IMG/VR virus record: IMGVR_UViG_3300035698_012504
Coordinates: 122,694 to 186,693 of that record
DNA from: a virus
Length of the DNA: 64,000 bases
Reading direction: 5' to 3' (one strand)
The position numbers and the translations under genes were made by a program. Each line of letters starts with the position of its first letter. The stretch's first letter is position 1. This document shows, in pieces, positions 1 through 39,307 of this stretch. Under the pieces are notes generated by a model that searched no databases, had not been told where the DNA came from, and worked only from the letters and a program-made list of their open reading frames with translations.

Positions 1-569
1 TTAATTTTGACGATATAATAATAAATGGATGTTCAACGAGACCAACTAAAAAACAAATAATTATTTATGATAGAATATTGTCAGAAAATATGATGTTAAA
101 CCACAATAGATATTCTTTTGAAAAAAGAATAGGTAATGATATCATTAATTATTCAGATGAAATACTTTCAAAAATATTATGTGGAATTATTGACGGAGAT
201 GGTTCTTTTATCCCAGAAAAAAGTAGAACATATATTTCTATGGAATTAACATCTGTTAAATTAATTCAAGAAATTCATCATATTTTAAATAAATTTAATA
301 TTAATCATAATGTAACATTATCTACTGTTAAACCTCTTACTAGACATCAATCATATACTATGAAAATATATCCATCAATAGAAGATAAAGATATATTTAA
401 ATATAGTTATAAAATTGATTTAGAAATACTTCCTAAAAAGAATGAAAGAAAAAAATATGATTCTCTTATTAATTATTATAAAGATGTTTTTTGGGACAAT
501 AATGAATATGTATATGATTTAACAACAGAAACTGGGACACTATCAATTAATGGAATATTTTCACATAAT
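1..569 (+). mobile_element. LAGLIDADG-type intein (C-terminal portion; N-terminal splice junction lies upstream of the window)
   Basis: LAGLIDADG motif ILCGIIDGDGSFI. C-terminal splicing block VYDLTTETGTLSINGIFSHN followed by Thr at the +1 position. Inserted immediately before the TGG(L/V) motif of the RNAP trigger-loop region. Confidence 0.65.
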
Positions 570-1322
570 ACTGGTGGTGTATCTGAGCTGAAACGATATG
601 ATATAATTGAAGCAGTTATGAAAAACGTAGAAGAGGTGTTACGAGATAAAGTAACATCAAGATTAAAGCAAGTTGATAATACACTGATAGCAAAAGACGA
701 ATTTGTTAGACTTAGAATTCCGAGAAAGATATATAGAGATGAATATAGAATAGATATAGATGAGGAATATATTACTTTACCAAATGGATACTTCGATTTA
801 GTTATGGGAGATATTACAACTCCTGTTACAATCGAACAGGAGGTTAAGATATACCTTAAAGAAGGAGAGATGAGTAAGGATGAAGAATACATAGAAATAA
901 TCTTTCCTCCAGACTCCAAGTTAGTTGAAGTAGAACTCCAACAACAAGACCCAACTAAATTGGTTCAGAAAATGGATCAGATGGTTGGAGGAAAATCTCC
1001 ATGGACTACCCCAGTATCTCTCTTCATGAAGTTCTATGACATCTTAGGTCCAACTGGGTCATGGGATTCAGTACACTTAGAAGTAATTATATCTAATATA
1101 TTAAGAGCAAAAAAGGATCCGAAACAACCCGCTAGATTAAAGGTACCATTCGATCCAATTACATTCCCAATCAAAACTTTACCTTATGTAATTTCATGGC
1201 CGTTGGGGTTGGCCTTCGAAAATTTCGGAAAAGGGATCAGATATGGTTTAATATCTGACAGAGCGCCATCATCTAACATTGAAAAAGTATTGTTTGGTGA
1301 ACCATTAGTAGAAGAAAAATAA
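1..1322 (+). CDS. RNA polymerase beta-prime subunit, C-terminal fragment (5'-partial; intein plus trigger-loop/region G-H extein)
   Basis: Frame open from nt 3. After the intein end (..SHN/T at nt 569/570) the extein reads TGGVSELKRYDIIEA, resembling beta-prime DITGGLPRVAELFEAR. Later VHLEVIISNILRAKKD resembles region H RHIEVIVRQMLRK, and ISWPLGLAFENFGKGIRYG resembles SFISAASFQETTRVLTEAA. Stops at 1322. Confidence 0.6.
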   Translation, partial: NFDDIIINGCSTRPTKKQIIIYDRILSENMMLNHNRYSFEKRIGNDIINYSDEILSKILCGIIDGDGSFIPEKSRTYISMELTSVKLIQEIHHILNKFNINHNVTLSTVKPLTRHQSYTMKIYPSIEDKDIFKYSYKIDLEILPKKNERKKYDSLINYYKDVFWDNNEYVYDLTTETGTLSINGIFSHNTGGVSELKRYDIIEAVMKNVEEVLRDKVTSRLKQVDNTLIAKDEFVRLRIPRKIYRDEYRIDIDEEYITLPNGYFDLVMGDITTPVTIEQEVKIYLKEGEMSKDEEYIEIIFPPDSKLVEVELQQQDPTKLVQKMDQMVGGKSPWTTPVSLFMKFYDILGPTGSWDSVHLEVIISNILRAKKDPKQPARLKVPFDPITFPIKTLPYVISWPLGLAFENFGKGIRYGLISDRAPSSNIEKVLFGEPLVEEK

Positions 1323-1333: not shown

Positions 1334-3079
1334 ATGTTTAGATGTGAAATATGTGATAGAGAATTTAAAGGAATAAGATCGTTAGGTGTCCACATTAAAA
1401 GAATACATATGATTGAAACATCTGAATATTATTTAAAATATATTAATTTTAATAATAAATGTAAAATTTGTTCTAAAGAAACCAATTTTATAAATCTATC
1501 TAAAGGATTTAGAAAATATTGTAGTGGGTCTTGTAGAAATAAAGATCCTTATTATCAAAATAAGATTAAAGATACTAATTTAAAAAAATATGGTTCGGTT
1601 TCCCATTTTAATAATAATAAAATTCGTGATAAAATAAAGAAAACAAACTTAAAAAGATATGGGGATGATAACGCATTTAAAAATAAAGAGATTCGTGAAA
1701 GACAGAAAAAAACCCTCATAGAAACCTATGGTGTGGACCATCAATCAAAAATACATTCTGTTAAAAAAATATTAAGTAAAAAATCCAAAGAAAATTATCC
1801 AAATTATATAGATCAGATTAAACAAACAAATTTAGAAAGATATGGAACAGAATATGCGATTGCTTCAGATGAATTAAAAGAAAAGATAAAAAAATCCAAT
1901 CTAAAAAAATATGGGGTAGATAATGTGTTCAAACTCAAATTTTTCCAAGATAAATCAAGAAAAACAATAAAAGAAAAATATGGTGTAGATCATATATCTC
2001 AAAGTGAAATAAGAAAGAAAACAATTTTTACGAATTACTACACCAAACTTTTAACAGCTGAAAAATTTACTTCGAAAATTCTTCCCCTTTTTAATTTAAA
2101 AGATTATGATGGTACTAATAATAAATATTCATGGAAATGTAATAAATGTGATAATGAATTTGAAGATCATTTAAACAATGGACATATACCTAGATGTAAA
2201 AAGTGTTATCCAATTTGGTCAGGATCCTCAAAACTTGAAAAAGAAGTTAGAGAATTTATTGAAACACTTAGCATTAATTTCACCTCTAATACTAGAAAAA
2301 TTATTTTTCCTTTTGAATTAGATGTTTATATTCCAGAAAAAAATATAGCTATAGAATTTAATGGATTATATTGGCATAGTGAATTAAATGGGAAAAATAA
2401 GAATTATCATCTAGATAAAAATTTGAAGTGTAAAGAAAAAGGAATTCAATTAATTCATATATTTGAAGATGAATGGATTAATAAACAAGAAATAGTTAAA
2501 TCTATTATTAAAAATAAATTGGGATTGACTGAGACAAAAATATACGCTAGAAAATGTTTAATAAAAAATATTAATAATAAAGAAGCAACTGATTTTTTGA
2601 ATGATAATCATGTACAGGGAAGAATAAATGGAAAACATGTTGGTCTATATTTTAAAGACGAGTTGGTATCCATTCTTACAATTGGAAAAACTAGATTTAA
2701 TAAAAAATACGAATATGAAATATTAAGATTTTGTAATAAAATTAATACGAATACTATCGGTGGGTTTAGTAAGTTGCTAAAATATGTTATTAAAAATCAT
2801 TCTATATGTTCTTTAATTACATATGCAGATATACGTTATAGTGATGGAAAGTTATATAACTCTTCCGGTTTTAATCAATTAAATAAATCTACACCAAACT
2901 ATTTTTACTTAGATAAAAACTATAATTCTAGATTGAGTAGAATTCAATTTCAAAAACATAAATTAAAAAATTTATTAGAATCATTTGATCCTAAGTTAAC
3001 TGAGTGGCAGAATATGCAACTCAATGGGTATGATCGTATTTGGGACTGTGGGAATTTAGTATATGAATATAACTTTTAA
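1334..3079 (+). CDS. free-standing homing-endonuclease-like protein (N-terminal C2H2-like zinc finger, tandem KYG(V/S)xN repeats, DUF559/Vsr-like PD-(D/E)XK nuclease domain)
   Basis: N-terminal CEICDREFKGIRSLGVHIKRIH. At least six repeats of the form NLK(K/R)YG..N....KI...I.K. Nuclease-like FPFELDVYIPEKNIAIEFNGLYWHSE...KNLKCKEKGIQLIHIFEDEW. Sits in the 12-22 nt gaps between the RNAP beta-prime C fragment and beta genes. Confidence 0.55.
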   Translation: MFRCEICDREFKGIRSLGVHIKRIHMIETSEYYLKYINFNNKCKICSKETNFINLSKGFRKYCSGSCRNKDPYYQNKIKDTNLKKYGSVSHFNNNKIRDKIKKTNLKRYGDDNAFKNKEIRERQKKTLIETYGVDHQSKIHSVKKILSKKSKENYPNYIDQIKQTNLERYGTEYAIASDELKEKIKKSNLKKYGVDNVFKLKFFQDKSRKTIKEKYGVDHISQSEIRKKTIFTNYYTKLLTAEKFTSKILPLFNLKDYDGTNNKYSWKCNKCDNEFEDHLNNGHIPRCKKCYPIWSGSSKLEKEVREFIETLSINFTSNTRKIIFPFELDVYIPEKNIAIEFNGLYWHSELNGKNKNYHLDKNLKCKEKGIQLIHIFEDEWINKQEIVKSIIKNKLGLTETKIYARKCLIKNINNKEATDFLNDNHVQGRINGKHVGLYFKDELVSILTIGKTRFNKKYEYEILRFCNKINTNTIGGFSKLLKYVIKNHSICSLITYADIRYSDGKLYNSSGFNQLNKSTPNYFYLDKNYNSRLSRIQFQKHKLKNLLESFDPKLTEWQNMQLNGYDRIWDCGNLVYEYNF

Positions 3080-3100
3080 CAATAAAAGGAAGGTTAATTA

Positions 3101-6100
3101 ATGCAATATGCCAGTATAAAACCATTCAAACCGGTTACGAGTATTATAATTCCGCCGAAGGGAATTAAAGGAAAAAATGTATGCTTAGCAGTTTTTCCAG
3201 AGAACGATTTGTTCTTTGACTTCTATAGATTAATGGGAATAAAACCTGCGTTTGTTAAGCACGTTCATGTTCCTATAGTTCAGAAGCCGGTTCGAATTAG
3301 GTTGACTCCTACATACAAAAAAATAATCAAGTCTCATAAGTTGTTCCCATCACAAGGGCACTTCGGAGATTATACAAAAGTATCAGACAAAAACTTTTAT
3401 CTTGATATGAGTATGTATATAGCAGCTCTACAAGCGAAGTTTAAAATTACTAGATATAACTCTGGAAGAGCATACGTATCAATTCAAAAATTAATATCTG
3501 CTTTAGATAGTGTACCTGCAGAATCACACGAAAGAGTTATATTATATGCTGTCAATATAGATAAACCAATACCTAAGAAACTTTTAAGCAGAAGGATATA
3601 TCCTGTATGGGCCATGCTGTTTCAATACATTAGTGGCCGAACAGAATCTCTCCCATTCGATAAACTATTACTATTTATATATGGACAAGACGAAAAAAGA
3701 TTTGTATTATTGTATGATAAAGATAAGAAAGTAAATCTAGCTAGAATTAAAAGCTATCTTAAGAAACTTAAATCACTAGATAAAGATGATGAAGAAGCTG
3801 TCGAATCTGAGATCACCTCACAAAAAACTGTAGAAAATCTAAACTCTACCACAACACTTACAAATGTAGAGAAAGACAACGTTCAGAAAACAGTAGATGA
3901 ATACCTAGAAGTTGATCCGTCTGCCAAAGAAGAACCTATTGGGAATATAGTAGCTGCTGCGATTGCATATAAGGTAACAGGTAGTATTGAAAAAGCAAAA
4001 TCTATTTCTAAAAAGGCAACATCAACTGATAAAGAAAAAATAATACAAAACTATGCTAAAGATCTTATACCAAAACAAAAAGCCTATCCACAGATTAGAT
4101 CTGCTATGGTTAAGATGGCAAGTCCAGCAGATATAATAGATAATCAAGTTCCTACTCACCTCCTTGAGAAAAGAAAGAGAGACTTTGCTGAGAATTTAGT
4201 TGAGGATTTAACTGATGCATTCAAGGTCTTAGAAAATAAAGATATGCCTCTGAAGGTTAAAGATATAGAAGTTAAAACTATGAAGTCTCCTCCCAGTGAT
4301 CTAACCCCTACAATCAAGGATAGATATACCGTGACTATGACTGATGATAAAGGAGTAGACCAGACTGTATATATGGATCTCCCTCACCTTACAGAGAACG
4401 GAACGTTTATGATATATGGTCAGGAGAATGTATTAATCAATCAGATTATACCTTATCCTATATTCTTTCTAAAACCATACCTTGGTAGGTTTGAATCATC
4501 TTACTCTACTGTAGCAATATATAGCAAGAGACTTAAAAGAACTTCTTATTTAATGATTCATATAGGTAACTATAAAATTCCATTGACTATGTTCATGGCA
4601 TATAAATATGGATTAAAACAATGTCTAAATCTATTTGGAATGAAATATACTCTTACTGATAAAAAAGATGGAGAGAATTCTCTAAAGTTACATGATGGAA
4701 CATTCATTAATTTTACATTCGAAGATGATATACTTGGACCAGAGGTAATTGAATCATTTAGATTTGCTCTTCCTAGTATTCCAGAAGGAGAAGATATAGA
4801 ATCTTCTGAGACATGGCAACACGGACTGGAATCATATACAGATAATAGAAACTGTGTTGATACTATGGATCAGATATGGGCAAATATTGTGACCCCTATA
4901 GAGATTAAAATTCTTAAATCAAAAGGGGATCCTACTAATATAAGAGACATAATTATATTCATAGCTAAGGAAGTTGTTCGTGGTCGAGTAGATGATAGAA
5001 ATGGTTGTGATAAACTCAGAATAAGATCGTCTGAATTGTTTGTGGCATTAGCACAGAAGCAGGTACTGATGGCATACAATGAGTATATGAGTAAGAGAGC
5101 GGGTGGAGATACAACTGCTACTCTATATATAAATCCTACGTCTGTGTTCACTGATGTTATAACCTCTCAGAACGTTGCTATATTAGAAAATATAAATCCC
5201 GTTGAAGAGTTATCAACAATGACAAGAATATCCCCTGTTGGTATTGGTGGTGTTCCTAAGTCGGAAGCATTTCCAAGACAGGCTATGAACGTCCACCCAA
5301 CATACTTCGGATGTATAGATCCTTTAGATACACCAAACGGGCCAGGGGTTGGATTCCAGCAGCATCTGACAGTCGGTGCGACAATAAGTAATGTCAGAGG
5401 TCAGATGATTGTTAAGGATAGAAAGAATGTTAAAGCCACGGAAATATTAAGTGTCAGTCCAGCGTTAATACCATTTGTAGAATCGAATGAAGGTGCTAGA
5501 GTTACTATGGCTGCCGGTCAGCAGAAACAGGCAGTGCCTATTAAATTCCCAGAGAACCCTGCGGTTCAAACAGGATACGAAGCATGTCTCACCCCACTTC
5601 TATCAGATAGCTTTATTAAGAAGAGCCCAGTGGACGGAGAGATTGTAGATATAAAGGATGGATTTATTTTAGTACTTGATAAAAGTGGAAAGACTCATGT
5701 AGTTGGTACTCGTCCAGCTAACCTTAAGAGTGGTGGCGGTCAGGATGGGCTAAGTGTATTTCATCCAACTGTTAAACTAAAACAGAAGGTTAAAGAAGGA
5801 ACTATCATAGCAGAAGGGGCCAATGTTAAGGACGGATTAATATCTAATGGTGTTAATATGTTGACTGGAATGATGCCATGGAAAGGATATAATTTTGAGG
5901 ATGGTATGGTGATAAGTGAGTCAGCAGCGGCGAAATTCATATCTGTTCACGCAGAACATAACGAAGCACTCGTCACCCCAGAAGAAGATATATCATTCAT
6001 ACAAAGCATCGGAAACACAATTAGAAAAGGAGACATCCTCCTGACATATTCAACAGCAATATATGATGTACAGGCAAACAAACATATACGAGCAGAGAAC

Positions 6101-7144
6101 GGACGTGTAACAGACATAGAAGTATATTCTAATGTACCTGAAGATGCTATACCAGAAAAGCTATTACCAGCATATGAACGATTTAGAGATCAATATAAAA
6201 CATTGCATGGTAAATATCCTATAGGACACTTCAGAGAGAAGGGTGAGAAGTTTGAAGGGATTAAAGTAAAATTTATTATTGCACAAGAGCTTAGTATATT
6301 TAAAGGAGATAAACTTAATAATCGTCACTTCAACAAGGGAGTTGTTGCTATCATTGAGAAGGATGAAAATATGCCTGAGACTCCTTGGGGTGATAAATTG
6401 GAGATGTTATATAATCCATTAAGTATTTTAAATAGAATGATTACTGGTCAGTTATTAGAAATGGCAACTGGATTAGTAGCTAAAAGAATTGCAGATCTAA
6501 TGGAAGAACTACCAAGAAAGAGATTCGAAGTAATATATCATAAGATACTTGTACTAATGGATGGAACTAAAGGAAAGACATATAGTAAACGGGTACATCA
6601 AAAGATGTCAGCATTATCTGATCCAGCATATGAAACAATTAGAAAACAAGTTATAAAGAATGGATTCGTTCCAATTATATGTGCTCCATTTAAGAGTCCA
6701 GATAGAAAAGCAATTGAGGTAGCTCTGAAGTTAGTTGGTAGATCGGCTAGAACTAAATTAAAGATAGCTCATTTAGGTGTGACAACAGAACCAGTAGCAG
6801 TAGGATATGTTTATGTTAACAAGCTTGAGCATATGTCAGAGAAGAAGATCCACTCCAGAGGAACAGGCGGATATAATTCAATAACATTTCAACCAACTGC
6901 AGGTAAAAGGAAAGGTGGTGGTCAGAAGTTAGGTGAGTATGATATGTATTCTTTATTAGGATGGAATTGTCCCACTCTAATTGATGAGTTCTTTGGACCA
7001 CTTAGTGCCGATCATGCTACAAAGAACCAGATGGTATCTGAAATACATCAAACTGGATCTACAGAATTTAAGACTCCTGTTCATAATCCAGTTAAAGATC
7101 TATTCTCTCAGATGATGACAGCCATACACTTGGAGTCTGAATAA
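3101..7144 (+). CDS. multisubunit RNA polymerase beta subunit (full length, set 1)
   Basis: LPHLTENGTFMIYGQENVLINQIIPYPIFF (beta region D: GTFxINGxERV). GQQKQAVPI. FKGDKLNNRHFNKGVVAIIEKDENMP (GDKxxxRHGNKGV). HSRGTGGYNSITFQPTAGKRKGGGQKLGEYDMYSLLGW (GGQRFGEMEVWALEAYG). Confidence 0.9.
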   Translation: MQYASIKPFKPVTSIIIPPKGIKGKNVCLAVFPENDLFFDFYRLMGIKPAFVKHVHVPIVQKPVRIRLTPTYKKIIKSHKLFPSQGHFGDYTKVSDKNFYLDMSMYIAALQAKFKITRYNSGRAYVSIQKLISALDSVPAESHERVILYAVNIDKPIPKKLLSRRIYPVWAMLFQYISGRTESLPFDKLLLFIYGQDEKRFVLLYDKDKKVNLARIKSYLKKLKSLDKDDEEAVESEITSQKTVENLNSTTTLTNVEKDNVQKTVDEYLEVDPSAKEEPIGNIVAAAIAYKVTGSIEKAKSISKKATSTDKEKIIQNYAKDLIPKQKAYPQIRSAMVKMASPADIIDNQVPTHLLEKRKRDFAENLVEDLTDAFKVLENKDMPLKVKDIEVKTMKSPPSDLTPTIKDRYTVTMTDDKGVDQTVYMDLPHLTENGTFMIYGQENVLINQIIPYPIFFLKPYLGRFESSYSTVAIYSKRLKRTSYLMIHIGNYKIPLTMFMAYKYGLKQCLNLFGMKYTLTDKKDGENSLKLHDGTFINFTFEDDILGPEVIESFRFALPSIPEGEDIESSETWQHGLESYTDNRNCVDTMDQIWANIVTPIEIKILKSKGDPTNIRDIIIFIAKEVVRGRVDDRNGCDKLRIRSSELFVALAQKQVLMAYNEYMSKRAGGDTTATLYINPTSVFTDVITSQNVAILENINPVEELSTMTRISPVGIGGVPKSEAFPRQAMNVHPTYFGCIDPLDTPNGPGVGFQQHLTVGATISNVRGQMIVKDRKNVKATEILSVSPALIPFVESNEGARVTMAAGQQKQAVPIKFPENPAVQTGYEACLTPLLSDSFIKKSPVDGEIVDIKDGFILVLDKSGKTHVVGTRPANLKSGGGQDGLSVFHPTVKLKQKVKEGTIIAEGANVKDGLISNGVNMLTGMMPWKGYNFEDGMVISESAAAKFISVHAEHNEALVTPEEDISFIQSIGNTIRKGDILLTYSTAIYDVQANKHIRAENGRVTDIEVYSNVPEDAIPEKLLPAYERFRDQYKTLHGKYPIGHFREKGEKFEGIKVKFIIAQELSIFKGDKLNNRHFNKGVVAIIEKDENMPETPWGDKLEMLYNPLSILNRMITGQLLEMATGLVAKRIADLMEELPRKRFEVIYHKILVLMDGTKGKTYSKRVHQKMSALSDPAYETIRKQVIKNGFVPIICAPFKSPDRKAIEVALKLVGRSARTKLKIAHLGVTTEPVAVGYVYVNKLEHMSEKKIHSRGTGGYNSITFQPTAGKRKGGGQKLGEYDMYSLLGWNCPTLIDEFFGPLSADHATKNQMVSEIHQTGSTEFKTPVHNPVKDLFSQMMTAIHLESE

Positions 7145-8097
7145 TGAATAAACTAGAATTTTTGGAGGAGGCTATGTTCGGAGTTGGTAAGAAGAATGCT
7201 CCTACATTTATATATACTATATTAAATGGTAAACCACCGTACCCTCCTCTTGTAGGACAAACATCAGATCATAGACAAAAAATTTGGAATAGAATCGCAG
7301 TTGATTTTAACATTCCAGATAAGGCTCTTAATAATTTATTAAAAATAAAAGAAATAGAGATGAGAGCATCATGCGAAGGCCACTCAGAAGAGAGACCAAC
7401 ATTTCTTATTATAAGATTAAAGGATCAAAGAGAAGAATATATTAAAACATTTGTAGAAGCGTTAAATAAAGAAAAAGATATCGTAGCAGGATATGGTCTT
7501 GGAAATAAAGGATTCTATAGAGTCGGAATTACTATTGAGATATGGCATGATAAAGATCCTATTAGATTTAAAAAATGGTGGTTAGCATTACCAAAGAAAA
7601 TAAATAATGCATTTAAGTCTTCATATGTATCAGAGAGCTGTTACATTCAAGAAGTATCATCTAATCCTCTACAAGGAGTTGTAGGCCCATTCAGTGTAGG
7701 AACACACCAACTAACCGGTCTTCAGATGTGGACGCTTGGGAGCATGTTTAAGCCCTTCAGAAAGAACGTAGGTGATGCTGCCTGGTTGATCATAGCTAAA
7801 CCAAAAAATATTGAGAAGGTAGGTGGAGAATCTAAAATAAAAGTATTCTTTGGAAAGGTATTATTTGGAGACGCTCATAAAATTTATAGAAATATAAAGG
7901 AGTGGGAGACTGGAACGGCACTATATGGTATATGGGATACTACTAAAACAAAACGCCAAGGTGGGTTTGTTAAGAAGATAGAAGGTATAGATTCTATACA
8001 TACAAAGGCAGAATTTATAATTGAATTTGACTCCGGATTATTAAATAGTCCAGCGATTTCATCCCACATTAGTGGGAAGATAAGGAGAAATAAATAA
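7144..8097 (+). CDS. hypothetical protein (possibly an RNAP-associated subunit by position)
   Basis: 317-aa ORF starting at the stop of the beta gene (ATGA overlap). No recognisable motif. Confidence 0.4.
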   Translation: MNKLEFLEEAMFGVGKKNAPTFIYTILNGKPPYPPLVGQTSDHRQKIWNRIAVDFNIPDKALNNLLKIKEIEMRASCEGHSEERPTFLIIRLKDQREEYIKTFVEALNKEKDIVAGYGLGNKGFYRVGITIEIWHDKDPIRFKKWWLALPKKINNAFKSSYVSESCYIQEVSSNPLQGVVGPFSVGTHQLTGLQMWTLGSMFKPFRKNVGDAAWLIIAKPKNIEKVGGESKIKVFFGKVLFGDAHKIYRNIKEWETGTALYGIWDTTKTKRQGGFVKKIEGIDSIHTKAEFIIEFDSGLLNSPAISSHISGKIRRNK

Positions 8098-8646
8098 ATG
8101 GATTTAACAGATGATAAAACATTGGGAAGACTTTATCTTGATAAGGATGAACCTAGTATAACCCAAGAACAGATAAATGAACGACTGCTATATTTCCATT
8201 CTCAAAATGTGTTATTGGATGCTGCAAAACATCCGATGTCTAAATATGATATAGAATTTAATTATGATATTTTGGAGATAGATGATCAGGAATTTTGGAC
8301 ACATCTAATGGTGGAGTTAGCTAAGATTTATTCTTTGAATAATCTTAAAATGTTTTTGTCTCCATCGTTTACAATTTCAGAAATTCCTAACTCAGAAAAA
8401 CCGGAATCAATTAATTTGCCGGTCAATATTAAGAGGCTTTTTAAATGCCTAAAAGTTGATGTTCCAGACGCTATGAATGAGGGAAAAATTAGCAGCATAA
8501 CTACTCGTCAGGAGCTAGAAGAACTTACTATAAAAGAGGGATATTGCAGGCTGTTTTCATGGTCAATTTATAACTTAGATAAGGAGAATTACGTCAAGTT
8601 TTTACGTGAAATTTTACGTCAAAAAGACCTTGACTTTCCTGACTAA
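8098..8646 (+). CDS. hypothetical protein
   Basis: 182-aa ORF immediately following the previous gene (TAAATG junction). No motif recognised. Confidence 0.4.
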   Translation: MDLTDDKTLGRLYLDKDEPSITQEQINERLLYFHSQNVLLDAAKHPMSKYDIEFNYDILEIDDQEFWTHLMVELAKIYSLNNLKMFLSPSFTISEIPNSEKPESINLPVNIKRLFKCLKVDVPDAMNEGKISSITTRQELEELTIKEGYCRLFSWSIYNLDKENYVKFLREILRQKDLDFPD

Positions 8647-8692
8647 AACGGTTAAAAAACGACCAAAAATAGCCATTTTCTAGGGTTTTACT

Positions 8693-8716
8693 ATATATAT
8701 TAATTAGTGAGAAGGA
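8693..8716 (+). promoter_or_regulatory. copy 1 of conserved promoter-like motif TATATATTAATTAGTGAGAAGG
   Basis: One of four near-identical AT-rich motifs (consensus TATATATTAAATAGTGA) found only in intergenic regions upstream of small GC-rich genes. Contains TATATTA, reminiscent of phiKZ-type early promoters. Confidence 0.45.
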
Positions 8717-8798
8717 CAGGTTCAACCGTGTTTTACCAGTCTTTCTCCTCTCTTACCGGTACGTACTGGTGAGGGAGAAGCTGAGTTGGGTTTCCCGT

Positions 8799-8810
8799 CT
8801 AATAAAGAAT
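8799..8810. repeat. 12-bp direct repeat CTAATAAAGAAT (left copy) flanking the GC-rich cassette
   Basis: An identical 12-mer recurs at 9179-9190. The two copies bracket a roughly 370-bp segment of anomalously high GC. Confidence 0.4.
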
Positions 8811-8856
8811 TTTAATTGGGCGTGTTACCTACACTACACACATGAGGAGCAGGATT

Positions 8857-9081
8857 ATGGATCTCTTTGGAGCAATCGGAACGGCAATGGAAATCGTAGA
8901 AGAAGGTGCGGAGGTCGCTGAAGGACTCTCACCATTGGCCCTCGGTGGAATCGTCGCAGCCAGTGCCGTCGCCGGTGGCATCACCGTGGCAGCGATCACC
9001 CACACCATGGGCAAGGGCGGCACGGAGGGCAAGAAGAAGAAGAGCAAGAAGGAAAAGGCAGCCGCCCCCGCCACCGCCTAG
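8857..9081 (+). CDS. small GC-rich membrane protein (hydrophobic Ala/Gly-rich helix plus Lys-rich tail)
   Basis: SD GAGGAG 8 nt upstream of ATG 8857. MDLFGAIG...LALGGIVAASAVAGGITVAAI...KKKKSKKEKAAAPATA. Codon usage is GC-rich, unlike the rest of the window. Bracketed by the promoter motif and a strong hairpin. Confidence 0.45.
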   Translation: MDLFGAIGTAMEIVEEGAEVAEGLSPLALGGIVAASAVAGGITVAAITHTMGKGGTEGKKKKSKKEKAAAPATA

Positions 9082-9130
9082 TTACAACAGTCTTAACGAC
9101 ACGCGCCGAGCTGGCGGAGTCGCAGAGGTA

Positions 9131-9173
9131 GAGACGCGATCACTGGAGAGAAATCTCCTGGTGGTCGCGTCTC
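9131..9173 (+). terminator. strong 13-bp-stem hairpin (terminator-like, no U tract)
   Basis: GAGACGCGATCAC...GTGGTCGCGTCTC inverted repeat with a 17-nt loop, directly after the small GC-rich gene. Confidence 0.4.
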
Positions 9174-9178
9174 ATACC

Positions 9179-9190
9179 CTAATAAAGAAT
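9179..9190. repeat. 12-bp direct repeat CTAATAAAGAAT (right copy)
   Basis: Identical to 8799-8810. Confidence 0.4.
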
Positions 9191-9231
9191 CAAAATATTT
9201 TTGTTTTAAAATAAAAAGGAGAACGTGTATT

Positions 9232-9567
9232 ATGTTTACAGTTGAACAAAAGTCGTCGAATTTCAGTGTTGGTGGACAACTAATAGGATTTGATGGAGGT
9301 GGAGCAGACAATGAATTAATACTAAAATTTAGAACTAGAGTAGGAGATGTTGAAATAACTATACCAAATGTTTCCCCAATGGTTATTAAACTAATGCAAA
9401 AAGTTGGAGTGAATAATTTAAAGGGTCAGGTGCTTGATCTAGATAGAAATAGATTGAATGCTGAATCTGTACACCAAGAGACAGCAACGGTAGTTGGGTC
9501 AGGTATGCAGAAAAAAGGAGAAGAAGTTACTCCTGCAGTAGTAGTTGGCGCAGGAGTCCAGAAGTAG
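9232..9567 (+). CDS. hypothetical protein
   Basis: 111-aa ORF with SD AAAAGGAGA upstream. Confidence 0.35.
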   Translation: MFTVEQKSSNFSVGGQLIGFDGGGADNELILKFRTRVGDVEITIPNVSPMVIKLMQKVGVNNLKGQVLDLDRNRLNAESVHQETATVVGSGMQKKGEEVTPAVVVGAGVQK

Positions 9568-14601: not shown

Positions 14602-14925
14602 ATGTCAGAAAATAAAAAACCATTTGAAATTGAAACGCCCGGCGAACTTCTACGAGCTATTCTATTTGTTCTTGGCAGTATAGTTTTTAGTGGTGTATTG
14701 GTGTTACTTGCTTGTAAAATAATTATAGATATAGTTATAGCATTATCATATACTTCATTAGTAGGAATAATAATAGGATCATTTATAATTGCAACAGCCT
14801 CAGTAATTGGAAGTCCAATACAAGAAGAGATGATTAAATACTATGAAGAAAAAAATAAGAAATATTTAGAAGAAAAAAAGAAAAAAGAAGATGACAAAGA
14901 TGTTCAAACTAACAGTAAGAGTTAA
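14602..14925 (+). CDS. small membrane protein
   Basis: Two long hydrophobic segments (ILFVLGSIVFSGVLVLLACKII... and LVGIIIGSFIIATASVIG) followed by a Lys/Glu-rich tail. Confidence 0.4.
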   Translation: MSENKKPFEIETPGELLRAILFVLGSIVFSGVLVLLACKIIIDIVIALSYTSLVGIIIGSFIIATASVIGSPIQEEMIKYYEEKNKKYLEEKKKKEDDKDVQTNSKS

Positions 14926-15328
14926 CTTCTCAGCAGCACATAGATTAAAATATAGTAAAAGTGACTGTGCGTTTTTACATGGCCACAATTATAAACTATT
15001 AGTATACTATGAAGGAGATCTATCTCCAACAAGTGGAATGGTAGAAGACTTCAAAGAAATAGAATCAAATATTGCAGGATATGTATTAGAGAAGTTCGAT
15101 CATTCTATAATAATAAGTTCACATGACACTGAAATGTTAGATGTTATTGGCGAGATTTCACCTAAGAAAATAGCACTAGTAGATGGAGAACCTACTGCAG
15201 AAGTAATAGTTAACGACATTGCAAAACATATAAGATTTCTTGCACTAGAGTCAGACTTCTATAAAGGTTACAGCGAATTAGAATTATGGGAAACAGATAA
15301 ATACTGCGTCTCATTAAAATTATATTAG
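14891..15328 (+). CDS. queD: 6-carboxy-5,6,7,8-tetrahydropterin synthase QueD (PTPS family)
   Basis: KLTVRVNFSAAHRL...CAFLHGHNY...GMVEDFKEIE are the PTPS/QueD zinc-site and catalytic motifs. The true start may be ATG 14900. Confidence 0.8.
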   Translation: MTKMFKLTVRVNFSAAHRLKYSKSDCAFLHGHNYKLLVYYEGDLSPTSGMVEDFKEIESNIAGYVLEKFDHSIIISSHDTEMLDVIGEISPKKIALVDGEPTAEVIVNDIAKHIRFLALESDFYKGYSELELWETDKYCVSLKLY

Positions 15329-15336: not shown

Positions 15337-17832
15337 ATGTTAATACGAAAGTCAGGTATCATCCTTCCGAAAGATGACCCTCAGTTAGAGTTGATAAAAT
15401 CAGACCTCACTAGGAAAGTCTTTCAGTGGGATGGATCATGGAAAACTATGACCTTTTACGAGGACATGTCAGACTACATAGTTATCCCTAGATTCTACCC
15501 TGCTCTTGGAAAAATAAGAGATGATAGAACTGACGGAGATGATATAGAAATAGAATCAAAAATAAAACCTTTGAATTCTAGACAAGAGAAGGTGATGAAC
15601 TTTCTTGAGAAAACAGAGAATTGTATACTTAGACTCGAACCTGGGAGTGGGAAAGCTCAACCAATTTATTCTAAAATATTGACACCTATTGGTTGGAAAA
15701 ACCTTCAAGATATTCAAATCGGGGATAATGTAATTGATCCAGTATCTGGAAGAAATGTAAAGGTATTAGGTGTTTTTCCTCAAGGTAAAAAAGAAGTATA
15801 TAAATTAACTTTTAATGATGGAGCCACAACGTTTTGTTGTAATGATCATTTATGGAAAGTAAAATATAAAAGATCATGTATTGGTGAAAAAGAATATTGG
15901 AAGATTAAACCATTAAATGATTTAAAAAATGATTATTATATAGATAAACAAAAAAGACTTAAATATTTTATCCCAATTACATCTCCTATTGAATTTGAAA
16001 ATCAAGAAATAAAAATAGACCCTTATCTTTTAGGTTGTTTGCTTGGAGATGGAACAATTAGATTTGGTGGTGGAACTATATCGTTATCTTCCAGGGATAA
16101 AGAATTGATAGAAACTTGTTCGGTGTTATTAGATAAATATAATCTTGAGTTCAAAAAAGATAACAAATATGACTACAGAATAAGAATTAAAAATAATAAG
16201 TTTAGAAAAAAATTTAGAAAAAAAGGAAAATATTTAAATCCTTTAAAAATATATTTGGATGAATTGGGTCTTCTGGGTAAAAAATCATATGAAAAATTTA
16301 TACCAAATACATATAAATTTAATTCTATGTATAATCGAATTAGTATTCTACAAGGACTCTTGGATACCGATGGATATGTTTCAGATAAAAAACAAGAAGT
16401 TAGTTTTTCATCTACATCTTATACGTTATGTAAAGATGTTAAATTTATAGTTGATAGTCTTGGTGGAAAATCCAAAATATATCCAAAACAAACATATTAT
16501 ACATATAAAAATATTAAGAAAAAAGGAAGACCTTCCTGGGTAGTAAATATAACTTTAGATAAAAATATAATTCCATTTAGATTATCTCGAAAAGTTAAAA
16601 GATATAATAATATTCATAAATATCCTCCTTCGAGAGCAATAAAAGATATTAAATATATTGGAAAAGAAGAATGTCAATGTATAAAAGTTGATTCAGATGA
16701 TGGATTATACATAACTGATGATTTTATAGTAACACATAATACTGTTACAGCAATAGAAACTATATGTAGATTAAAGAAACGAACTATTATATTTGCTCAT
16801 AAAACAGAACTATTAGATCAATGGAGAGGTGAATTTCTTAAACATACTAATCTAACAGAAGATGATATTCAGAAGGTTAATACAGACGATAAGAAGTTTG
16901 ATGGCTGTCTGAAAAAGAAAATCATTTTATGTACACCCCATACTATATCTGTAGCTATTAGATTAAATAAAAAAGATTTCATACGCGCATTATTAAAAGC
17001 AGGCATAGGTATTTGTTTTATAGACGAATGCCATGTTGGAATAGGTCCAGAGGAATTCTCCAAGAGTTCAATTTATATAAACGCCAAACGAATATATGGA
17101 TTATCTGCTACACCATTTAGACCAGATGGAAATGATGACATAATAAGATATCACCTCGGAGAGGTAAAGTATTTTCCTCCGGAGAAAGATGAACTAATAA
17201 ACCCCAAAGTTCTTATGGTACATATGCCGTTCCATGTATTTGAAACATATAATATGAAACAAAATTTAATGTGGGGAGGACGATTTCAGAATGCTAGATA
17301 CTGGAATCTATTGGCGAAGCAACCTAAGTATATTCATAATGTTGCGTCGATTATAAAGAGAGCATACACAGAGGGAAGAAATATATTAGTACTTGGCAAT
17401 AGAGTTCAGGGTCTAATGAACATGGCCGAGGCATGTAATATTCATAAAAAAGACATCGGTATATTTATGAGCACTGCCACCAGTGAACATAAGAAAAGAG
17501 TTCTAGAACTTTCAGATACTACAGATCTTAAAGAAGCATTCTATAAAAAGCGAGTTGTGTTTTCTACATATGGTATGGCTAGGGATGGAAACAACAGAAA
17601 AGATTTAGACTTTCTTGTATTATGTATACCGACTGGCAACATAGAACAAGCAGTGGGTAGAGTTCAGAGAGAACTCAAGGGGAAACGTAGACCAATAGTA
17701 ATAGATTTAGTAGATACCCAAAGTCCTAAGAATAAATCTGGAAATTATATATTTGAATACCAGGCACAGAGAAGGAAAGAATTCTATGCTAAGATGGGTT
17801 GGAAAGTTGAGACGATATTTTTTAAAGAATAA
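15337..17832 (+). CDS. SF2 (DExH) DNA/RNA helicase interrupted by an intein in the Walker A motif
   Basis: The extein reads ...LEPGSGK|TVTAIE... (Walker A GSGKT once the intein is removed). CFIDECH (motif II), LSATP (motif III), QAVGRVQR (motif VI). Confidence 0.8.
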   Translation: MLIRKSGIILPKDDPQLELIKSDLTRKVFQWDGSWKTMTFYEDMSDYIVIPRFYPALGKIRDDRTDGDDIEIESKIKPLNSRQEKVMNFLEKTENCILRLEPGSGKAQPIYSKILTPIGWKNLQDIQIGDNVIDPVSGRNVKVLGVFPQGKKEVYKLTFNDGATTFCCNDHLWKVKYKRSCIGEKEYWKIKPLNDLKNDYYIDKQKRLKYFIPITSPIEFENQEIKIDPYLLGCLLGDGTIRFGGGTISLSSRDKELIETCSVLLDKYNLEFKKDNKYDYRIRIKNNKFRKKFRKKGKYLNPLKIYLDELGLLGKKSYEKFIPNTYKFNSMYNRISILQGLLDTDGYVSDKKQEVSFSSTSYTLCKDVKFIVDSLGGKSKIYPKQTYYTYKNIKKKGRPSWVVNITLDKNIIPFRLSRKVKRYNNIHKYPPSRAIKDIKYIGKEECQCIKVDSDDGLYITDDFIVTHNTVTAIETICRLKKRTIIFAHKTELLDQWRGEFLKHTNLTEDDIQKVNTDDKKFDGCLKKKIILCTPHTISVAIRLNKKDFIRALLKAGIGICFIDECHVGIGPEEFSKSSIYINAKRIYGLSATPFRPDGNDDIIRYHLGEVKYFPPEKDELINPKVLMVHMPFHVFETYNMKQNLMWGGRFQNARYWNLLAKQPKYIHNVASIIKRAYTEGRNILVLGNRVQGLMNMAEACNIHKKDIGIFMSTATSEHKKRVLELSDTTDLKEAFYKKRVVFSTYGMARDGNNRKDLDFLVLCIPTGNIEQAVGRVQRELKGKRRPIVIDLVDTQSPKNKSGNYIFEYQAQRRKEFYAKMGWKVETIFFKE
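15655..16740 (+). mobile_element. LAGLIDADG intein (362 aa) apparently beginning with Ala rather than Cys/Ser
   Basis: Block A AQPIYSKILTPIGWKNLQDIQIGDNV. Two LAGLIDADG motifs, LLGCLLGDGTIRFGGG and ISILQGLLDTDGYVSD. C-terminal DDFIVTHN followed by +1 Thr (TVTAIE). Removal recreates GSGKT. Confidence 0.7.
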
Positions 17833-36480: not shown

Positions 36481-37580
36481 TGCCTATAACAAGACTTAAG
36501 AAAGATAAGAGTGTACCCAAAGATGTGGGTGGATCGGGATTGGTTCCTAAAGCTAGCAAGCTTGCCCCGACTCACGCCTATGGAGCGGGTGTAAAGACTT
36601 CGAACGCGTGGGAATCCAAAGATCCAAAAATAATAGATTTCGTTAGTACTAGTAAAACAGTTCCTTGCGCAATTCCAGAACCAATTTATCAAGTATGTAG
36701 AGGATTAGATGCAGAATATCCCAGTGTAGAGTGGAGCATTCTGGTAAAGGGTAGCTGGGATGTTGAAAGAGATATGTTTGTATTGGAAGACGAATACTTT
36801 CTTCCTCAGCAAGAAGTCTCCGGAGCCCATGTGGATTACGAAGAGGACAATCCAGACTTCAATGGAGTGATACACAAACATCCAGGTGGAGTGACAAGTT
36901 TCTCTGCCACAGATGAATCATATATTAACAGGAATTTTATAATAAGCTTATTGTGGGTTAACCACGATTTTCATTATGGTATTGCTAACACTAGATCCAG
37001 AGATATGGGTGCAACAAGAATAAGACTTAAACTTAAACCAATACCGATGCAGGATCATATAGCAGTCCTTCCGGAAAATCATGCAGAGAAAATAAAAGAA
37101 AGATCATATGCTTATAAAAGATCATATGCTTATAGTGGTAGTCAATTTGGTGGGCTAGGAAACTGGCAAGGCAGAGGCAACCACAACGTTCACTCTAGCC
37201 AAGGCGCAGGTATGAGACACCAGGGTACCCAGAACGGCAAGCCAGGATACTGGCAAGGCGGTGTATTCCACCCTACCGAAGGTCATGGCTCGAACGACTC
37301 GTCTTCGGGGATGACCGGGAATAGAAGCGGTTCTGCGTTCGCCGAAGATGCTGACCTCGATCCCGACGAAGACCGCGCAGGCGGTGGGATAGGTGGTTGG
37401 AACCCATACGAAGATGATGACCTTCAATCATTATCAGGCGTCCCCGATGACGACGACGATGATGACGGAAAACCTCTAGGCGCACAATCGTACAACGATA
37501 TGGACGCCGAAGAATGGGAAGCATATATGGAATCTATTGACCACGAGTACGCAAAAATACCAGCGTGGATGTGGAAGTAA
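36480..37580 (+). CDS. JAB/MPN (JAMM) metalloprotease with a long Gly/Gln/Asp-rich low-complexity C-terminal tail
   Basis: Perfect JAMM motif NGVIHKHPGGVTSFSATDE (HxHx7Sx2D) with upstream acidic residues (DVERDMFVLEDE). The tail at 37050-37560 is GC-rich and disordered-looking. Start overlaps the E1 stop (TAATG). Confidence 0.8.
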   Translation: MPITRLKKDKSVPKDVGGSGLVPKASKLAPTHAYGAGVKTSNAWESKDPKIIDFVSTSKTVPCAIPEPIYQVCRGLDAEYPSVEWSILVKGSWDVERDMFVLEDEYFLPQQEVSGAHVDYEEDNPDFNGVIHKHPGGVTSFSATDESYINRNFIISLLWVNHDFHYGIANTRSRDMGATRIRLKLKPIPMQDHIAVLPENHAEKIKERSYAYKRSYAYSGSQFGGLGNWQGRGNHNVHSSQGAGMRHQGTQNGKPGYWQGGVFHPTEGHGSNDSSSGMTGNRSGSAFAEDADLDPDEDRAGGGIGGWNPYEDDDLQSLSGVPDDDDDDDGKPLGAQSYNDMDAEEWEAYMESIDHEYAKIPAWMWK

Positions 37581-39307
37581 TGTGTTTCATTTCAGCTTAT
37601 TGGGCGATTGAATCCGTACCGACTGAGGAGGTCCTTATGGGCCTTCTCAGTTCGGGTCCCGCCCGAGGTATGGATGGGTTTGGGACATGTATAATTAAGC
37701 CCAATGGAAGAGCAAATTCTCAACATAGACGAACCCATCCTAATGTTGTAGATCCTAACTACGAAGTTAAGATGGGAGACAAAGTACGATTAAATAGAAT
37801 GATAGATGATATCCAGAATGTAGTTAGAATAGATAGTAAGAACATTCAAGTAGGAGATATACATCTATCTAATTTCAGAGCCATCCCAGAAACAGAAGCG
37901 GAGTCAAGTGTATTAGAACTACAGCCTATAATGGAAGAAGGATTTCAGCTTGTTCATAATGGCGGAATATCTAATCATATAGTTGAAGAATTAAGAGAGA
38001 AAGTAGAGAATAAATTTGTATCCATTTCTAGTGGAGCTATAGATAGTGAAGCAATTCTATGGTCCTATTATTTACATAGTGGAGACATTAAAAAAGCTGT
38101 AGAATATTTAGTAGGGGGTCTTGCATTTATTTTAGTTGATCAAAAATATCAACACAAATTGTATGCCGTATGTAATCACAACCCATTGTTCTGTGGATAT
38201 GTAGTCGGGCATGGAATGTTCTTCGCGTCTTCAGAAGATGCAATATGGAGAGTCATAAGTAGACTGAGAGGTAAAGATACAACTAGATGTAATACAAAAG
38301 TATGGGAAGATTATTATTGTCAAGAGATACCAGAGAATACAATAGTATCGATAGATACTCAAACTGGTCAACGAGAAGATATAAAATTTACACCTAGATA
38401 TATTACGAATAATTATGATCCATTAACGAAAAAGAAATCGGGAAAAGAAAAGGTTCTTGTTTCCCTTTCAGGTGGATTGGATAGCTCTGCTACTGCTGTG
38501 CTGCTACATCTAGCTGGGTATGATGTGACTGCTGTACACTTTATGTATGGTCATGTTGGAGAACAATCAGAGTTTCAGGCAGCCCGTAGGGTGTGTGAGA
38601 TGAGCGGAATTGGATTACATAATCTTAAAGTAATGCATATACAAAAACCTATGCAAGAGATGGGATTTGGTATGTTATTAGATAAGAATGTACCTGTCAA
38701 CTCAGGAGATCCAAACTATATAAAAACTACAGTAGCATGGGCTCCGTTTAGAAATGGAATATTTGCTTCTTATTTAGGGGCACTTGCAGAGAGATATATT
38801 ACACAAGAAGATTACGATAAAGTATATATTGCTGGAGGATTTCTAAACCTAAGTGAGTCAGGAGTTTATCCAGATAATACTGAGAGATTTGTTAGAAGGT
38901 TTCAAGAATTTGCTGTGCTATCATCTATTATAGGGACTAAAATAGAACCATTATTTTGTTGTAGCAATCTATTAAAGCGGGAAATATGTACCCTGTTAGA
39001 TGGGTTAGATATATTTGAAATGATTGCTACCAATACTATCAGTTGTGATAGACCTAGGATGCATCTAGAAGGGTGTAGCTATAAAGGTTGGCCAGCATGT
39101 GGGTCAGGAATACTTTCTCATTTAGCATTCCTTCAAGCAGGGTTAGAAGACCCAAGAAAATACTACGAACTTGACGATGATCCTGGAGATCTACTTCACG
39201 GAGAAGCAACTCAAATGTATGTTGCTTATCCAGAAGAATTAATTAATAGACTTAATATAAGTGACGAAGGTAAAGAAAGATTACTGAATCGATTAGTAAA
39301 AAAATAG
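37565..39307 (+). CDS. glutamine amidotransferase (class II, Ntn) fused to a QueC-like PP-loop synthetase (Gat-QueC; 7-deazaguanine modification enzyme)
   Basis: N-terminus MCFISAYW...GPARGMDGFG...LVHNGGISNH (AsnB-type MCGI...RGPD...NGEIYN). PP-loop VLVSLSGGLDSSATAVLL. QueC-like FRNGIFASYLGALAERY...SGVYPDNTERF (QueC VPGRNLLF...SGYPDCRPEF). C-terminal Cys cluster SCDRPRMHLEGCSYKGWPACGSG. Start overlaps the JAB gene. Confidence 0.7.
   Translation: MDVEVMCFISAYWAIESVPTEEVLMGLLSSGPARGMDGFGTCIIKPNGRANSQHRRTHPNVVDPNYEVKMGDKVRLNRMIDDIQNVVRIDSKNIQVGDIHLSNFRAIPETEAESSVLELQPIMEEGFQLVHNGGISNHIVEELREKVENKFVSISSGAIDSEAILWSYYLHSGDIKKAVEYLVGGLAFILVDQKYQHKLYAVCNHNPLFCGYVVGHGMFFASSEDAIWRVISRLRGKDTTRCNTKVWEDYYCQEIPENTIVSIDTQTGQREDIKFTPRYITNNYDPLTKKKSGKEKVLVSLSGGLDSSATAVLLHLAGYDVTAVHFMYGHVGEQSEFQAARRVCEMSGIGLHNLKVMHIQKPMQEMGFGMLLDKNVPVNSGDPNYIKTTVAWAPFRNGIFASYLGALAERYITQEDYDKVYIAGGFLNLSESGVYPDNTERFVRRFQEFAVLSSIIGTKIEPLFCCSNLLKREICTLLDGLDIFEMIATNTISCDRPRMHLEGCSYKGWPACGSGILSHLAFLQAGLEDPRKYYELDDDPGDLLHGEATQMYVAYPEELINRLNISDEGKERLLNRLVKK

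Follow-up and report, generated by a model that had tools for sequence, protein, structure and literature searches.

An intein in the trigger loop of a phage RNA polymerase beta'-like subunit

The first 569 nucleotides of a 64,000-nt stretch of viral DNA (positions 122,694 to 186,693 of IMG/VR record IMGVR_UViG_3300035698_012504, one strand; hereafter the window) were analysed together with their surroundings, and nt 3-569 were confirmed as a real intein in the trigger loop of an RNA polymerase (RNAP) beta' subunit. The element is very probably the 3' part of a mobile intein of the class-1 type that contains a LAGLIDADG homing endonuclease, inserted in frame into a phage beta' between the positions equivalent to H936 and I937 of E. 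coli. An intein in the beta' trigger loop had been proposed in a preliminary description of this DNA, and that proposal is borne out by the junction motifs, by intein-free homologues and by a profile alignment to the E. coli protein. Judged from its sequence, the host protein is a beta'-like subunit of the multisubunit RNAP of an uncultivated huge phage. The intein and its host gene comprise the following features, with the evidence for each in brackets.

3..569, plus strand: C-terminal part of an intein of the LAGLIDADG type (translation, Pfam, TIGR01443, 111 homologues, absence in 16 homologues, GC step)
123..452, plus strand: second LAGLIDADG half-domain of the nested homing endonuclease, aa 41-150 (AlphaFold, Foldseek, motif alignment, invariant columns)
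504..569, plus strand: C-terminal splicing region, block F and block G (TIGR01443, match to the Neq Pol intein C-fragment, family-invariant columns)
570..572, plus strand: +1 nucleophile Thr (ACT), the first C-extein residue, equivalent to E. coli beta' I937 (translation, profile alignment)
570..1322, plus strand: C-extein, the 250-aa C-terminal module of the phage beta'-like subunit, to the stop codon (homologues, chained hhalign, PHROG 2926)

A single ORF in frame 3 occupies nt 3-1322 and is open as far back as the window's first base; across the intein/extein junction its translation reads ...EYVYDLTTETGTLSINGIFSHN, followed directly by TGGVSELKRYDIIEAVM.... The last 189 residues of the intein correspond to nt 3-569 and end in ...NGIFSHN, with all 189 visible codons open, and the end ..FSHN at position 569 given in the preliminary description is exact. 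His188-Asn189 is encoded by nt 564-569 (Asn189 by 567-569) and Thr190, the +1 residue, by nt 570-572. The segment has the C-terminal splicing motifs of a class 1 intein, namely block F (EYVYDLTTETGTL, nt 504-542), block G with its His-Asn (NGIFSHN, nt 549-569) and a residue of the Cys/Ser/Thr type at +1, and the C-terminal catalytic set (block F Asp172, His188, Asn189 and Thr+1) is present. The NCBIfam model TIGR01443 (intein_Cterm) matches aa 169-190 with 15.6 bits, which is exactly its cut-off. In addition, the C-fragment of the Nanoarchaeum split Pol intein (5oxx_B) matches YVYDLTTETGTLSINGIFSHNT, the last 23 residues, in a phmmer search against the PDB, a match that is weak alone (E 0.31). 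In an alignment of 20 family sequences, V170, Y171, D172, T175 and N189 are invariant. The GC content is 0.215 in the intein part (GC3 0.085) vs 0.352 in the C-extein (GC3 0.272), giving a step at the junction. The insertion is in frame at a conserved site and is cleanly missing in orthologues. The intein signals exceed chance.

Pfam LAGLIDADG_3 matches aa 57-122 with 25.6 bits (gathering cut-off 22.5). The sole LAGLIDADG motif in the window, L59-CGIIDGDG-67 (LCGIIDGDG, nt 177-203), aligns with the second motif of the related proteins P0038, P0039 and P0041, in which motif 1 precedes it by about 95 residues. From the motif order in complete relatives, the start of the window falls between both endonuclease motifs, with the first motif upstream of base 1. 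The visible endonuclease half is open and retains the acidic D66, a putative metal-binding residue, as well as the family-invariant columns (G65, D66, S84 and Q116 in the 20-sequence alignment). A model of aa 1-197, built by AlphaFold with the same alignment, has a pLDDT of 81-97 for aa 41-150, while the final 40 residues are modelled poorly, as is expected for a Hint fragment without its N-terminal half. The best structural matches found by Foldseek in the PDB are PI-SceI (1vde), I-DmoI, I-Tsp061I and bI3 maturase (probability 0.97-1.00), and the model together with these matches shows the alpha-beta-beta-alpha-beta-beta-alpha fold of a LAGLIDADG half-domain.

The C-extein consists of the trigger-loop tip (TGGVSE...), the second trigger-loop arm (about nt 636-665), a beta-rich region and the DSVHLEVIISNILR motif (nt 1065-1106), which matches NDKHIEVIVRQMLR of E. 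coli. It is 38-50% identical to the C-termini of metagenomic proteins of about 720 aa that carry Pfam Rpb1_2/3/5 and a GADFDGD motif, and it matches PHROG 2926 (E 1.3e-8). The direct match to E. coli beta' is weak and consists only of DSVHLEVIISNILR vs NDKHIEVIVRQMLR (E 0.038). The profiles were chained by hhalign: C-exteins of the window clade were aligned with diverse beta' C-exteins (99.65% probability, E 3.9e-25), and the latter with E. coli beta' 937-942+1131-1407 (99.45%, E 4.8e-22). For the second link SI3 (residues 943-1130) was deleted from E. coli beta', and the alignment is clean. According to this chain, the C-extein is homologous to beta' downstream of the trigger-loop tip.

The insertion site was located with 38 homologues. 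Sixteen of them are intein-free and read ...AAQE(C/V)xSLSEKIMKSFH↓TGGAV..., where the window reads ...SHN↓TGGVS (arrows mark insertion points or splice junctions). Hereafter, the window's site, FH↓T, is called site b, and the site three residues upstream, R↓TFH (...IMK↓...HN↓S/TFH), is called site a; 16 homologues have an intein at site a only and four have inteins at both. A profile of 13 intein-free homologues gave a single 207-bit domain against PDB beta' chains, ending at ...MRTFHTGG, and phmmer against the same chains likewise ended there. By hmmsearch, mklfhlGGav of the profile was aligned with MRTFHIGGAA of E. coli RpoC (M932-R933-T934-F935-H936-I937-G938-G939). This profile alignment of intein-free homologues places the insert directly after the catalytic trigger-loop His, between H936 and I937 of E. 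coli beta'. The window contains no N-extein; in intein-free homologues of the same clade it is present as beta' through NADFDGD, the bridge-helix region and the first trigger helix to the catalytic His.

The preliminary description had matched TGGVSELKRYDIIEA to DITGGLPRVAELFEAR of E. coli (residues 1133-1148), that is, to the second trigger-loop arm after SI3. This match is wrong: the +1 Thr aligns at I937, and GGLPRVADLF (E. coli 1136-1145) falls in the chained hhalign opposite C-extein residues 23-32 (VLRDKVTSRL, nt ~636-665) and not opposite residues 1-15, so that the counterpart of DITGGLPRVAELFEAR lies about 20 residues further downstream than had been proposed. By eye there is a certain likeness, since both sequences have the tripeptide TGG in common and LKRYDIIEA loosely resembles LPRVAELFEA in the form L-x-R...EA. 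However, the N-extein of the homologues aligns unbroken to FH (E. coli F935-H936) with TGG directly next, and hhalign treats C-extein residues 7-15 as an insertion. Therefore, it is exceedingly improbable that the earlier register is right and that the intein sits at the C-terminal trigger-loop arm, immediately before the equivalent of DITGGLPRVAELFEAR. Another candidate, in which the beta-rich region of the C-extein was an SI3-like trigger-loop insertion and GGKSPW the equivalent of GGLPRV, was dropped, because in the hhalign result the counterpart of the beta-rich region is the regular beta' segment that follows the trigger loop (PAILAEISG...) and that of GGKSPW... is LRGVHAVTRY....

The intein belongs to a family that surfaced only through an exhaustive HMMER search, in which aa 1-192 were compared with 1.84 billion representative proteins; a word-indexed protein search with the intein alone gave no match. 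The HMMER search returned 111 matches at E<=1e-3, 55 of them at E<=1e-10, with a best E of 2.6e-59. The C-terminal junction xN↓[ST]G[GSA] was found in 59 of the 111, the N-terminal junction ...GERGTQLxMKSFH↓C in 52 and both in 43, and site b is common to at least 59 representative clusters, all from metagenomes. Cys1 is present in 48 of the 52 relatives with the N-terminal junction, His-Asn in 55 of the 59 with the C-terminal one, and the +1 residue of the latter is Thr in 33 and Ser in 25. In the 43 proteins with both junctions, the intein has a median length of 393 aa and, in all cases except one, a length of 254-420 aa. Twenty-two carriers are beta-beta' fusions of 2400-4700 aa, and IMG/VR contains at least one carrier contig, of 170 kb. 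Most members of the family are unnamed in annotation.

Complete inteins 43-55% identical to that of the window are found in P0039-P0045, and a further one, 51% identical, lies in the 1415-aa beta' of the IMG/VR contig L011 (junctions KVKH↓CMHSD...WTHN↓TGG); all eight of these close relatives carry contiguous site-b inteins. In six of the eight, the site-b intein has a second intein (site a) or a split arrangement in front of it. The intein of P0039, for example, is contiguous and 398 aa long (SFH↓CTSKD...NSN↓TGG). In the relatives, Cys1 after FH is followed by block B with xQDNHP (CQDNHP), a CxxC...CxxC zinc ribbon, LAGLIDADG motif 1 (LFGMFLAEGS), motif 2, which is aligned with LCGIIDGDG of the window, and blocks F and G. 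Some relatives have degenerate residues, namely Ser1 in P0041 and P0045 and a penultimate Ser in P0039 and P0042. By analogy with these proteins, the full element of the phage is probably about 390-440 aa long, begins with a Cys1 directly after ...SFH and is likely to include a block B of the xQDNHP type, a CxxC...CxxC zinc ribbon and the first LAGLIDADG motif; the N-terminal part upstream of the window would then comprise roughly 200-240 residues. The preliminary description had made its reading depend on intein blocks A and B upstream and on an extein alignment across the junction. Checked in the relatives, blocks A and B and Cys1 are present and the exteins align.

Downstream of the intein-bearing gene, the window contains a second endonuclease gene and the components of two polymerases.

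1334..3079, plus strand: free-standing homing-endonuclease gene outside the intein, flanked by the beta' C-module and beta (Pfam, PHROG 3339)
3101..7144, plus strand: partner beta subunit of the same polymerase, 1347 aa (Pfam Rpb2_6 2e-37, Rpb2_3)
42271..45069, plus strand: beta' of a second RNAP, trigger loop uninterrupted (Pfam Rpb1_1 to Rpb1_5)
42271-48698: second RNAP set
57667-59415: T4-type large terminase

The genome is that of a phage with two RNAP sets. The second beta' provides an internal control: it reads ...ATQLVLRTFH↓ISGVASS... and has no insert. The product of the free-standing endonuclease gene has an N-terminal C2H2 Zn finger, DUF7487 repeats and a Vsr/MTES_1575-like nuclease (Pfam DUF7487 9e-24, MTES_1575 6e-4; PHROG 3339 'homing endonuclease' 1e-145; a weak match to TIGR00632 vsr), and the gene has a GC content of 0.237. 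A group I intron around this gene was considered and rejected, as the window has no Rfam match and the space between the two neighbouring genes is taken up by the endonuclease gene itself. In the related locus L004, beta' and beta follow each other in the same order as in the window without an endonuclease gene between them, and in L011 a 1532-aa ORF lies directly 3' of beta'.

Sequence upstream of the window was sought in several ways. The exact 54-nt junction pattern had no match in IMG/VR, the exact 50-nt window start had none in JGI metagenomes, an exact-protein look-up of the partial ORF gave no match, and scans of JGI metagenomes and IMG/VR for close relatives were empty. Look-ups of the neighbouring endonuclease and beta proteins returned two contigs only, L001 of 2.2 kb and L002 of 152 kb, the latter ending 878 bp upstream of beta. 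ENA entries ERZ27315536 and ERZ27315667 contain relatives of the phage genome. Among 50,697 GenBank phage records, megablast and tblastn found no match to the 8-kb region, the C-extein or the intein, and the beta subunit matches GenBank phages at <=30% identity. In GTDB species genomes, the block-F pattern was found in four archaeal Top6B inteins and in no cellular beta', a search by one peptide pattern that is no proof of absence.

With the region upstream of the window start hidden, the ORF might alternatively be the C-terminal piece of a fractured gene, in which the site-b intein is naturally split and trans-splices with an N-extein and IntN supplied by another gene further upstream. Such an arrangement exists at the neighbouring site in L004, where beta'N with a 25-aa IntN and a stop is followed by a DUF7487 endonuclease gene and then by IntC with the C-extein; about 15 homologues begin at METKxL..KGKDG, and an endonuclease of the same family (DUF7487) is encoded in the window. 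However, the intein reading frame is open to base 3, and its first 57 residues are collinear with the middle of contiguous site-b inteins, between the LAGLIDADG motifs, where a break would split the endonuclease. Moreover, the closest relatives (P0039-P0045 and L011) are contiguous in eight cases out of eight, and the free-standing endonuclease gene of the window lies 3' of the extein stop (1322) and not inside the intein, so the visible part does not have the layout of a fractured gene. We regard a split intein here as very unlikely.

Closure of the trigger loop is required for catalysis by multisubunit RNAPs, and the precursor would be unable to form a working trigger loop. Splicing would start with an N-S acyl shift at Cys1, a residue known from the relatives, followed by transesterification to Thr+1; cyclisation of Asn189, assisted by His188, and an O-N shift would then excise the intein and restore ...SFH-TGG.... 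In the proposed homing step, which would take place during co-infection, alleles lacking the intein would be cut by the endonuclease in their conserved trigger-loop coding sequence, and the intein would be copied in by recombinational repair. The element would stay fixed because the host loop would not tolerate imprecise deletion. The sporadic distribution of the intein, its foreign composition and the intein-free paralogue in the same genome suggest a selfish mobile element rather than a domain recruited by the host.

This copy is presumably competent for splicing, and its endonuclease, which the preliminary description had called apparently intact although the window holds just the second half-domain, may be intact. 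The opposite reading is that the intein is decaying and no longer splices and/or has a dead endonuclease, leaving a beta' pseudogene or little active enzyme, for which the second RNAP compensates. Its N-terminal half is unseen, its GC3 is very low (0.085), a second, uninterrupted beta' is encoded in the window, and relatives show degenerate residues (Ser1 in P0041/P0045, a penultimate Ser in P0039/P0042) and, at the related locus L003, a frameshift within the intein. The contig with L003 is a long-read one, however, and its frameshift may stem from a sequencing error. In the window itself, 189 of 189 visible codons are open, all family-invariant residues of the visible part are kept (including D66, D172, H188 and N189), Thr+1 is present, and the C-extein runs intact through all 250 aa to its stop, with 38-50% identity to homologues. 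Decay of this copy is thus unlikely.

The insert might also have been domesticated, either as a conditionally splicing element that gates the polymerase or as an unspliced, SI3-like trigger-loop domain. It lies six residues from the SI3 site of E. coli and belongs to a widespread site-b family; moreover, the unspliced precursor should be catalytically crippled, so that splicing would necessarily control activity. On the other hand, the canonical splice residues are conserved throughout the family, the homing-endonuclease domain is retained, the composition looks foreign, presence and absence vary sporadically among close homologues in the way typical of a selfish mobile element, and the data hold no pointer to a sensor. 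A domesticated insert is highly improbable on these grounds. According to a broader proposal, which we consider quite unlikely, a hot-spot for inteins lies in the first trigger-loop helix of viral beta', and splicing is an obligatory, possibly condition-dependent maturation switch that times one of the two polymerases. The hot-spot would comprise at least three sites within eight residues, GE(P)G↓TQ, R/K↓S/TFH and FH↓T/S; tandem inteins could be separated by Ser-Phe-His alone, and natural split forms would be part of the same picture. The switch would follow from the inability of the unspliced trigger loop to close, and the timed polymerase would probably be the virion-packaged one, since the PHROG matched by the C-extein carries the annotation of a virion protein.

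No description of an intein in the beta' trigger loop or in a phage multisubunit RNAP was found in the open-access full-text literature. An RNAP trigger-loop intein is not new in kind, because an archaeal A'' intein lies in the same helix; what is new is the site after the catalytic His, in a phage/bacterial-type beta', with a large family behind it. The catalytic trigger loop appears as a recurrent landing site of inteins in bacterial-type and phage RNAPs, and the trigger-loop inteins of phages are tied to the intein of archaeal A'', which has been listed for a long time and which, by the model coordinates, lies in the same helix. Automatic annotation will label intein-bearing beta' genes wrongly, as fragments or hypothetical proteins. 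For mechanistic work, the unspliced precursor would offer a natural 'off' state of a multisubunit RNAP. In addition, natural split inteins that combine an N-fragment of 25 aa with Ser/Thr at +1 occur among the relatives; inteins of this sort are in demand for protein labelling. The value of the finding rests mainly on the family and the relatives; that of the window copy alone is limited, as half of the element is missing.

Among known systems, the closest are the archaeal A'' inteins. When Goodwin et al. (2006, PMC1635734) listed inteins of the largest RNAP subunit, the known ones were Mja rPol A', Mja rPol A'' and Nph rPol A'' alone. The archaeal A'' insert was located with two NCBIfam models, PRK14898/NF011491 (intein-containing, 860 positions) and TIGR02389 (intein-free, 367 positions). 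The E. coli ...TQLTM932 corresponds to position 77 of PRK14898 and position 64 of TIGR02389, and TFH to positions 547-549 and 66-68, respectively, with about 468 extra positions between ...M(R) and TFH in the former. The profile coordinates alone thus place the archaeal A'' intein between ...M(R) and TFH. Like the window's intein, it lies in a largest-subunit homologue and inside the first trigger-loop helix; in contrast, it occupies site a, three residues upstream of site b, and its host is an archaeal A'' rather than a bacterial-type phage beta', so the two insertion sites are not the same. The window protein has no match to PRK14898 at E<=1, and P0008, a phage site-a intein, weakly matches the insert region of the model (E 3.5e-4, profile 142-202). 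Inteins in RPB2, RPA2, RPC2 and viral second-largest subunits also occupy conserved sites near the RNAP active centre, several of them with LAGLIDADG endonucleases (PMC1635734). They differ in lying at unrelated sites of beta/Rpb2 homologues of eukaryotes and nucleocytoplasmic large DNA viruses. Split inteins with free-standing Vsr-like endonucleases are known from 'fractured genes' (Dassa et al. 2009, PMC2677866), and a 25-aa IntN from atypical split inteins such as AceL-TerL (PMC11766414). L004 and others show the same arrangement at site a, the IntN being 25 aa long and the two halves being separated by a DUF7487/Vsr-like endonuclease gene, whereas the free-standing endonuclease gene of the window is intergenic, after the extein stop, and the visible intein is of the contiguous type.

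With PI-SceI and other class 1 inteins, the window's element shares a Hint domain interrupted by a LAGLIDADG endonuclease, a C-terminal His-Asn and a hydroxyl/thiol residue at +1. It differs from PI-SceI in an identity of about 10%, a comparison in which the window shows half an element. Canonical class 1 inteins have TxxH in block B, whereas the relatives of the window's intein have QDNHP and an extra CxxC...CxxC zinc ribbon. The last comparison concerns SI3, the 188-aa trigger-loop insertion of E. coli, which is a permanent, non-splicing sandwich-barrel domain. Both are large polypeptide inserts in the trigger loop, six residues apart; unlike SI3, the element of the window has splice-junction chemistry and a homing endonuclease.

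Two inteins can lie in tandem in the trigger loop of beta', with only the tripeptide Ser-Phe-His between them (...HN↓SFH↓C...HN↓TGG; arrows mark junctions). The upstream element occupies site a, and the downstream one occupies site b, which is the insertion point in the window. The tandem pairs among homologous metagenomic proteins and a contiguous site-a intein are as follows.

P0011, P0014, P0016 and P0020: tandem pair with a mini site-b intein
P0040-P0045: tandem pair with a LAGLIDADG site-b intein
L003 (ENA long-read contig), 5939-9284: contiguous site-a intein, EKIMK↓CSCGLVHVGD...VQNHN↓SFH

Because six of the eight relatives closest to the window's site-b intein carry the site-a intein too, the beta' gene of the window may hold one as well. 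The L003 copy is interrupted by a frameshift at about 8001-8029, which may be either a homopolymer error or genuine decay.

The same trigger-loop helix has a third intein site, located seven residues ahead of the trigger-loop histidine, between GE(P)G and TQ, and occupied in P0099 (aa ~1300) and P0103 (aa ~2262) with the C-junctions ...HN↓TQLTMRTFHSGG and ...HN↓SAMSSFHSGG, respectively. An additional intein-like element with LAGLIDADG motifs lies within the catalytic NADFDGD↓T motif and is contiguous in P0039 (aa ~92-610); it lacks Cys1, and at its end, ...(Y/Q)D↓TM, Asp replaces Asn. This element is apparently split in P0024, P0027, P0029 and P0044, the N-termini of which read ...LIPCS(E/D)L.I.LD...DFTVEDYYTFST.DG.FVQD↓TMS.

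In some relatives the beta' gene itself is fractured.

L004 (JGI 3300022697, 236-kb contig), 2447-7485: N-part of beta', endonuclease gene, and IntC with C-extein

The N-part terminates as ...EKIMK↓CGVGLINKNKKLISMDDIWEEKDKL*, that is, a 25-aa IntN followed by a stop codon; it is followed by a DUF7487 endonuclease gene and then by an IntC of about 240 aa joined to the C-extein. The same arrangement is present in the gene table of the contig encoding P0014, and the start METKxL..KGKDG, as in the IntC piece of the fractured gene, is common to about 15 homologues. The trigger loop of L004-type relatives thus holds a natural atypical split intein.

In a comparison of the NCBIfam models PRK14898 (intein-containing archaeal A'') and TIGR02389 (its intein-free counterpart), the long-known archaeal A'' intein falls within the trigger loop, after ...TQMT(L)R and before TFH. 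Going by these profile-model coordinates, the archaeal A'' intein is allelic with phage site a; no published statement to this effect was found in the literature.

Many site-b intein carriers have beta and beta' fused in one polypeptide of 2400-4700 aa, and these come from metagenomic or viral contigs. P0066, a partial site-b carrier of 1185 aa without the fusion, is assigned by its label to a Weeksellaceae MAG.

P0056-P0058, P0065, P0069-P0073, P0088, P0092 and others, and L012 (IMG/VR 170-kb contig): beta-beta' fusion carriers

In the window, the beta' C-module is separated from beta by a homing-endonuclease gene.

1334-3079, + strand: free-standing homing-endonuclease gene (C2H2 finger, DUF7487, Vsr-like nuclease)

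The same endonuclease is broken at the contig end in L002 (1-857), an assembly whose beta protein is identical to that of the window, and the DUF7487-type family occurs at two other RNAP-cluster positions in L004 (1-1194 and 3932-6001). Assembly ends lie within a few kb of the intein locus in all independent assemblies of this phage (L001 and L002), and the first base of the window falls inside the intein. These breaks could reflect population polymorphism for intein and endonuclease insertions.

Further genes of this phage are listed below.

Window 37565-39307: QueC-like amidotransferase fusion
L002 12678-13106 (about window 14900-15328): PTPS (QueD-like) gene
Window 15337-17832, + strand: ResIII-type helicase gene bearing an intein with two LAGLIDADG motifs
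Window 42271-45069, + strand: second multisubunit RNAP beta', 932 aa
Window 45681-48698, + strand: second multisubunit RNAP beta, 1005 aa

The QueC-like fusion and the PTPS gene hint that the DNA of this phage carries a 7-deazaguanine modification. The helicase intein, the second intein within the window, is inserted in the Walker A loop (...LEPGSGK↓AQPIYSKILTPIGW...DDFIVTHN↓TVTAIE), and its first residue appears to be Ala rather than Cys. Its block-B His is followed by Trp, block F contains a Cys and position G5 is Thr, a set resembling the "WCT" pattern of class 3 inteins. The second beta'/beta pair lies about 40 kb downstream of the intein-bearing set, and nothing interrupts the trigger loop of its beta'. 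With this pair the phage encodes two RNAP sets, the same as phiKZ-like jumbo phages.
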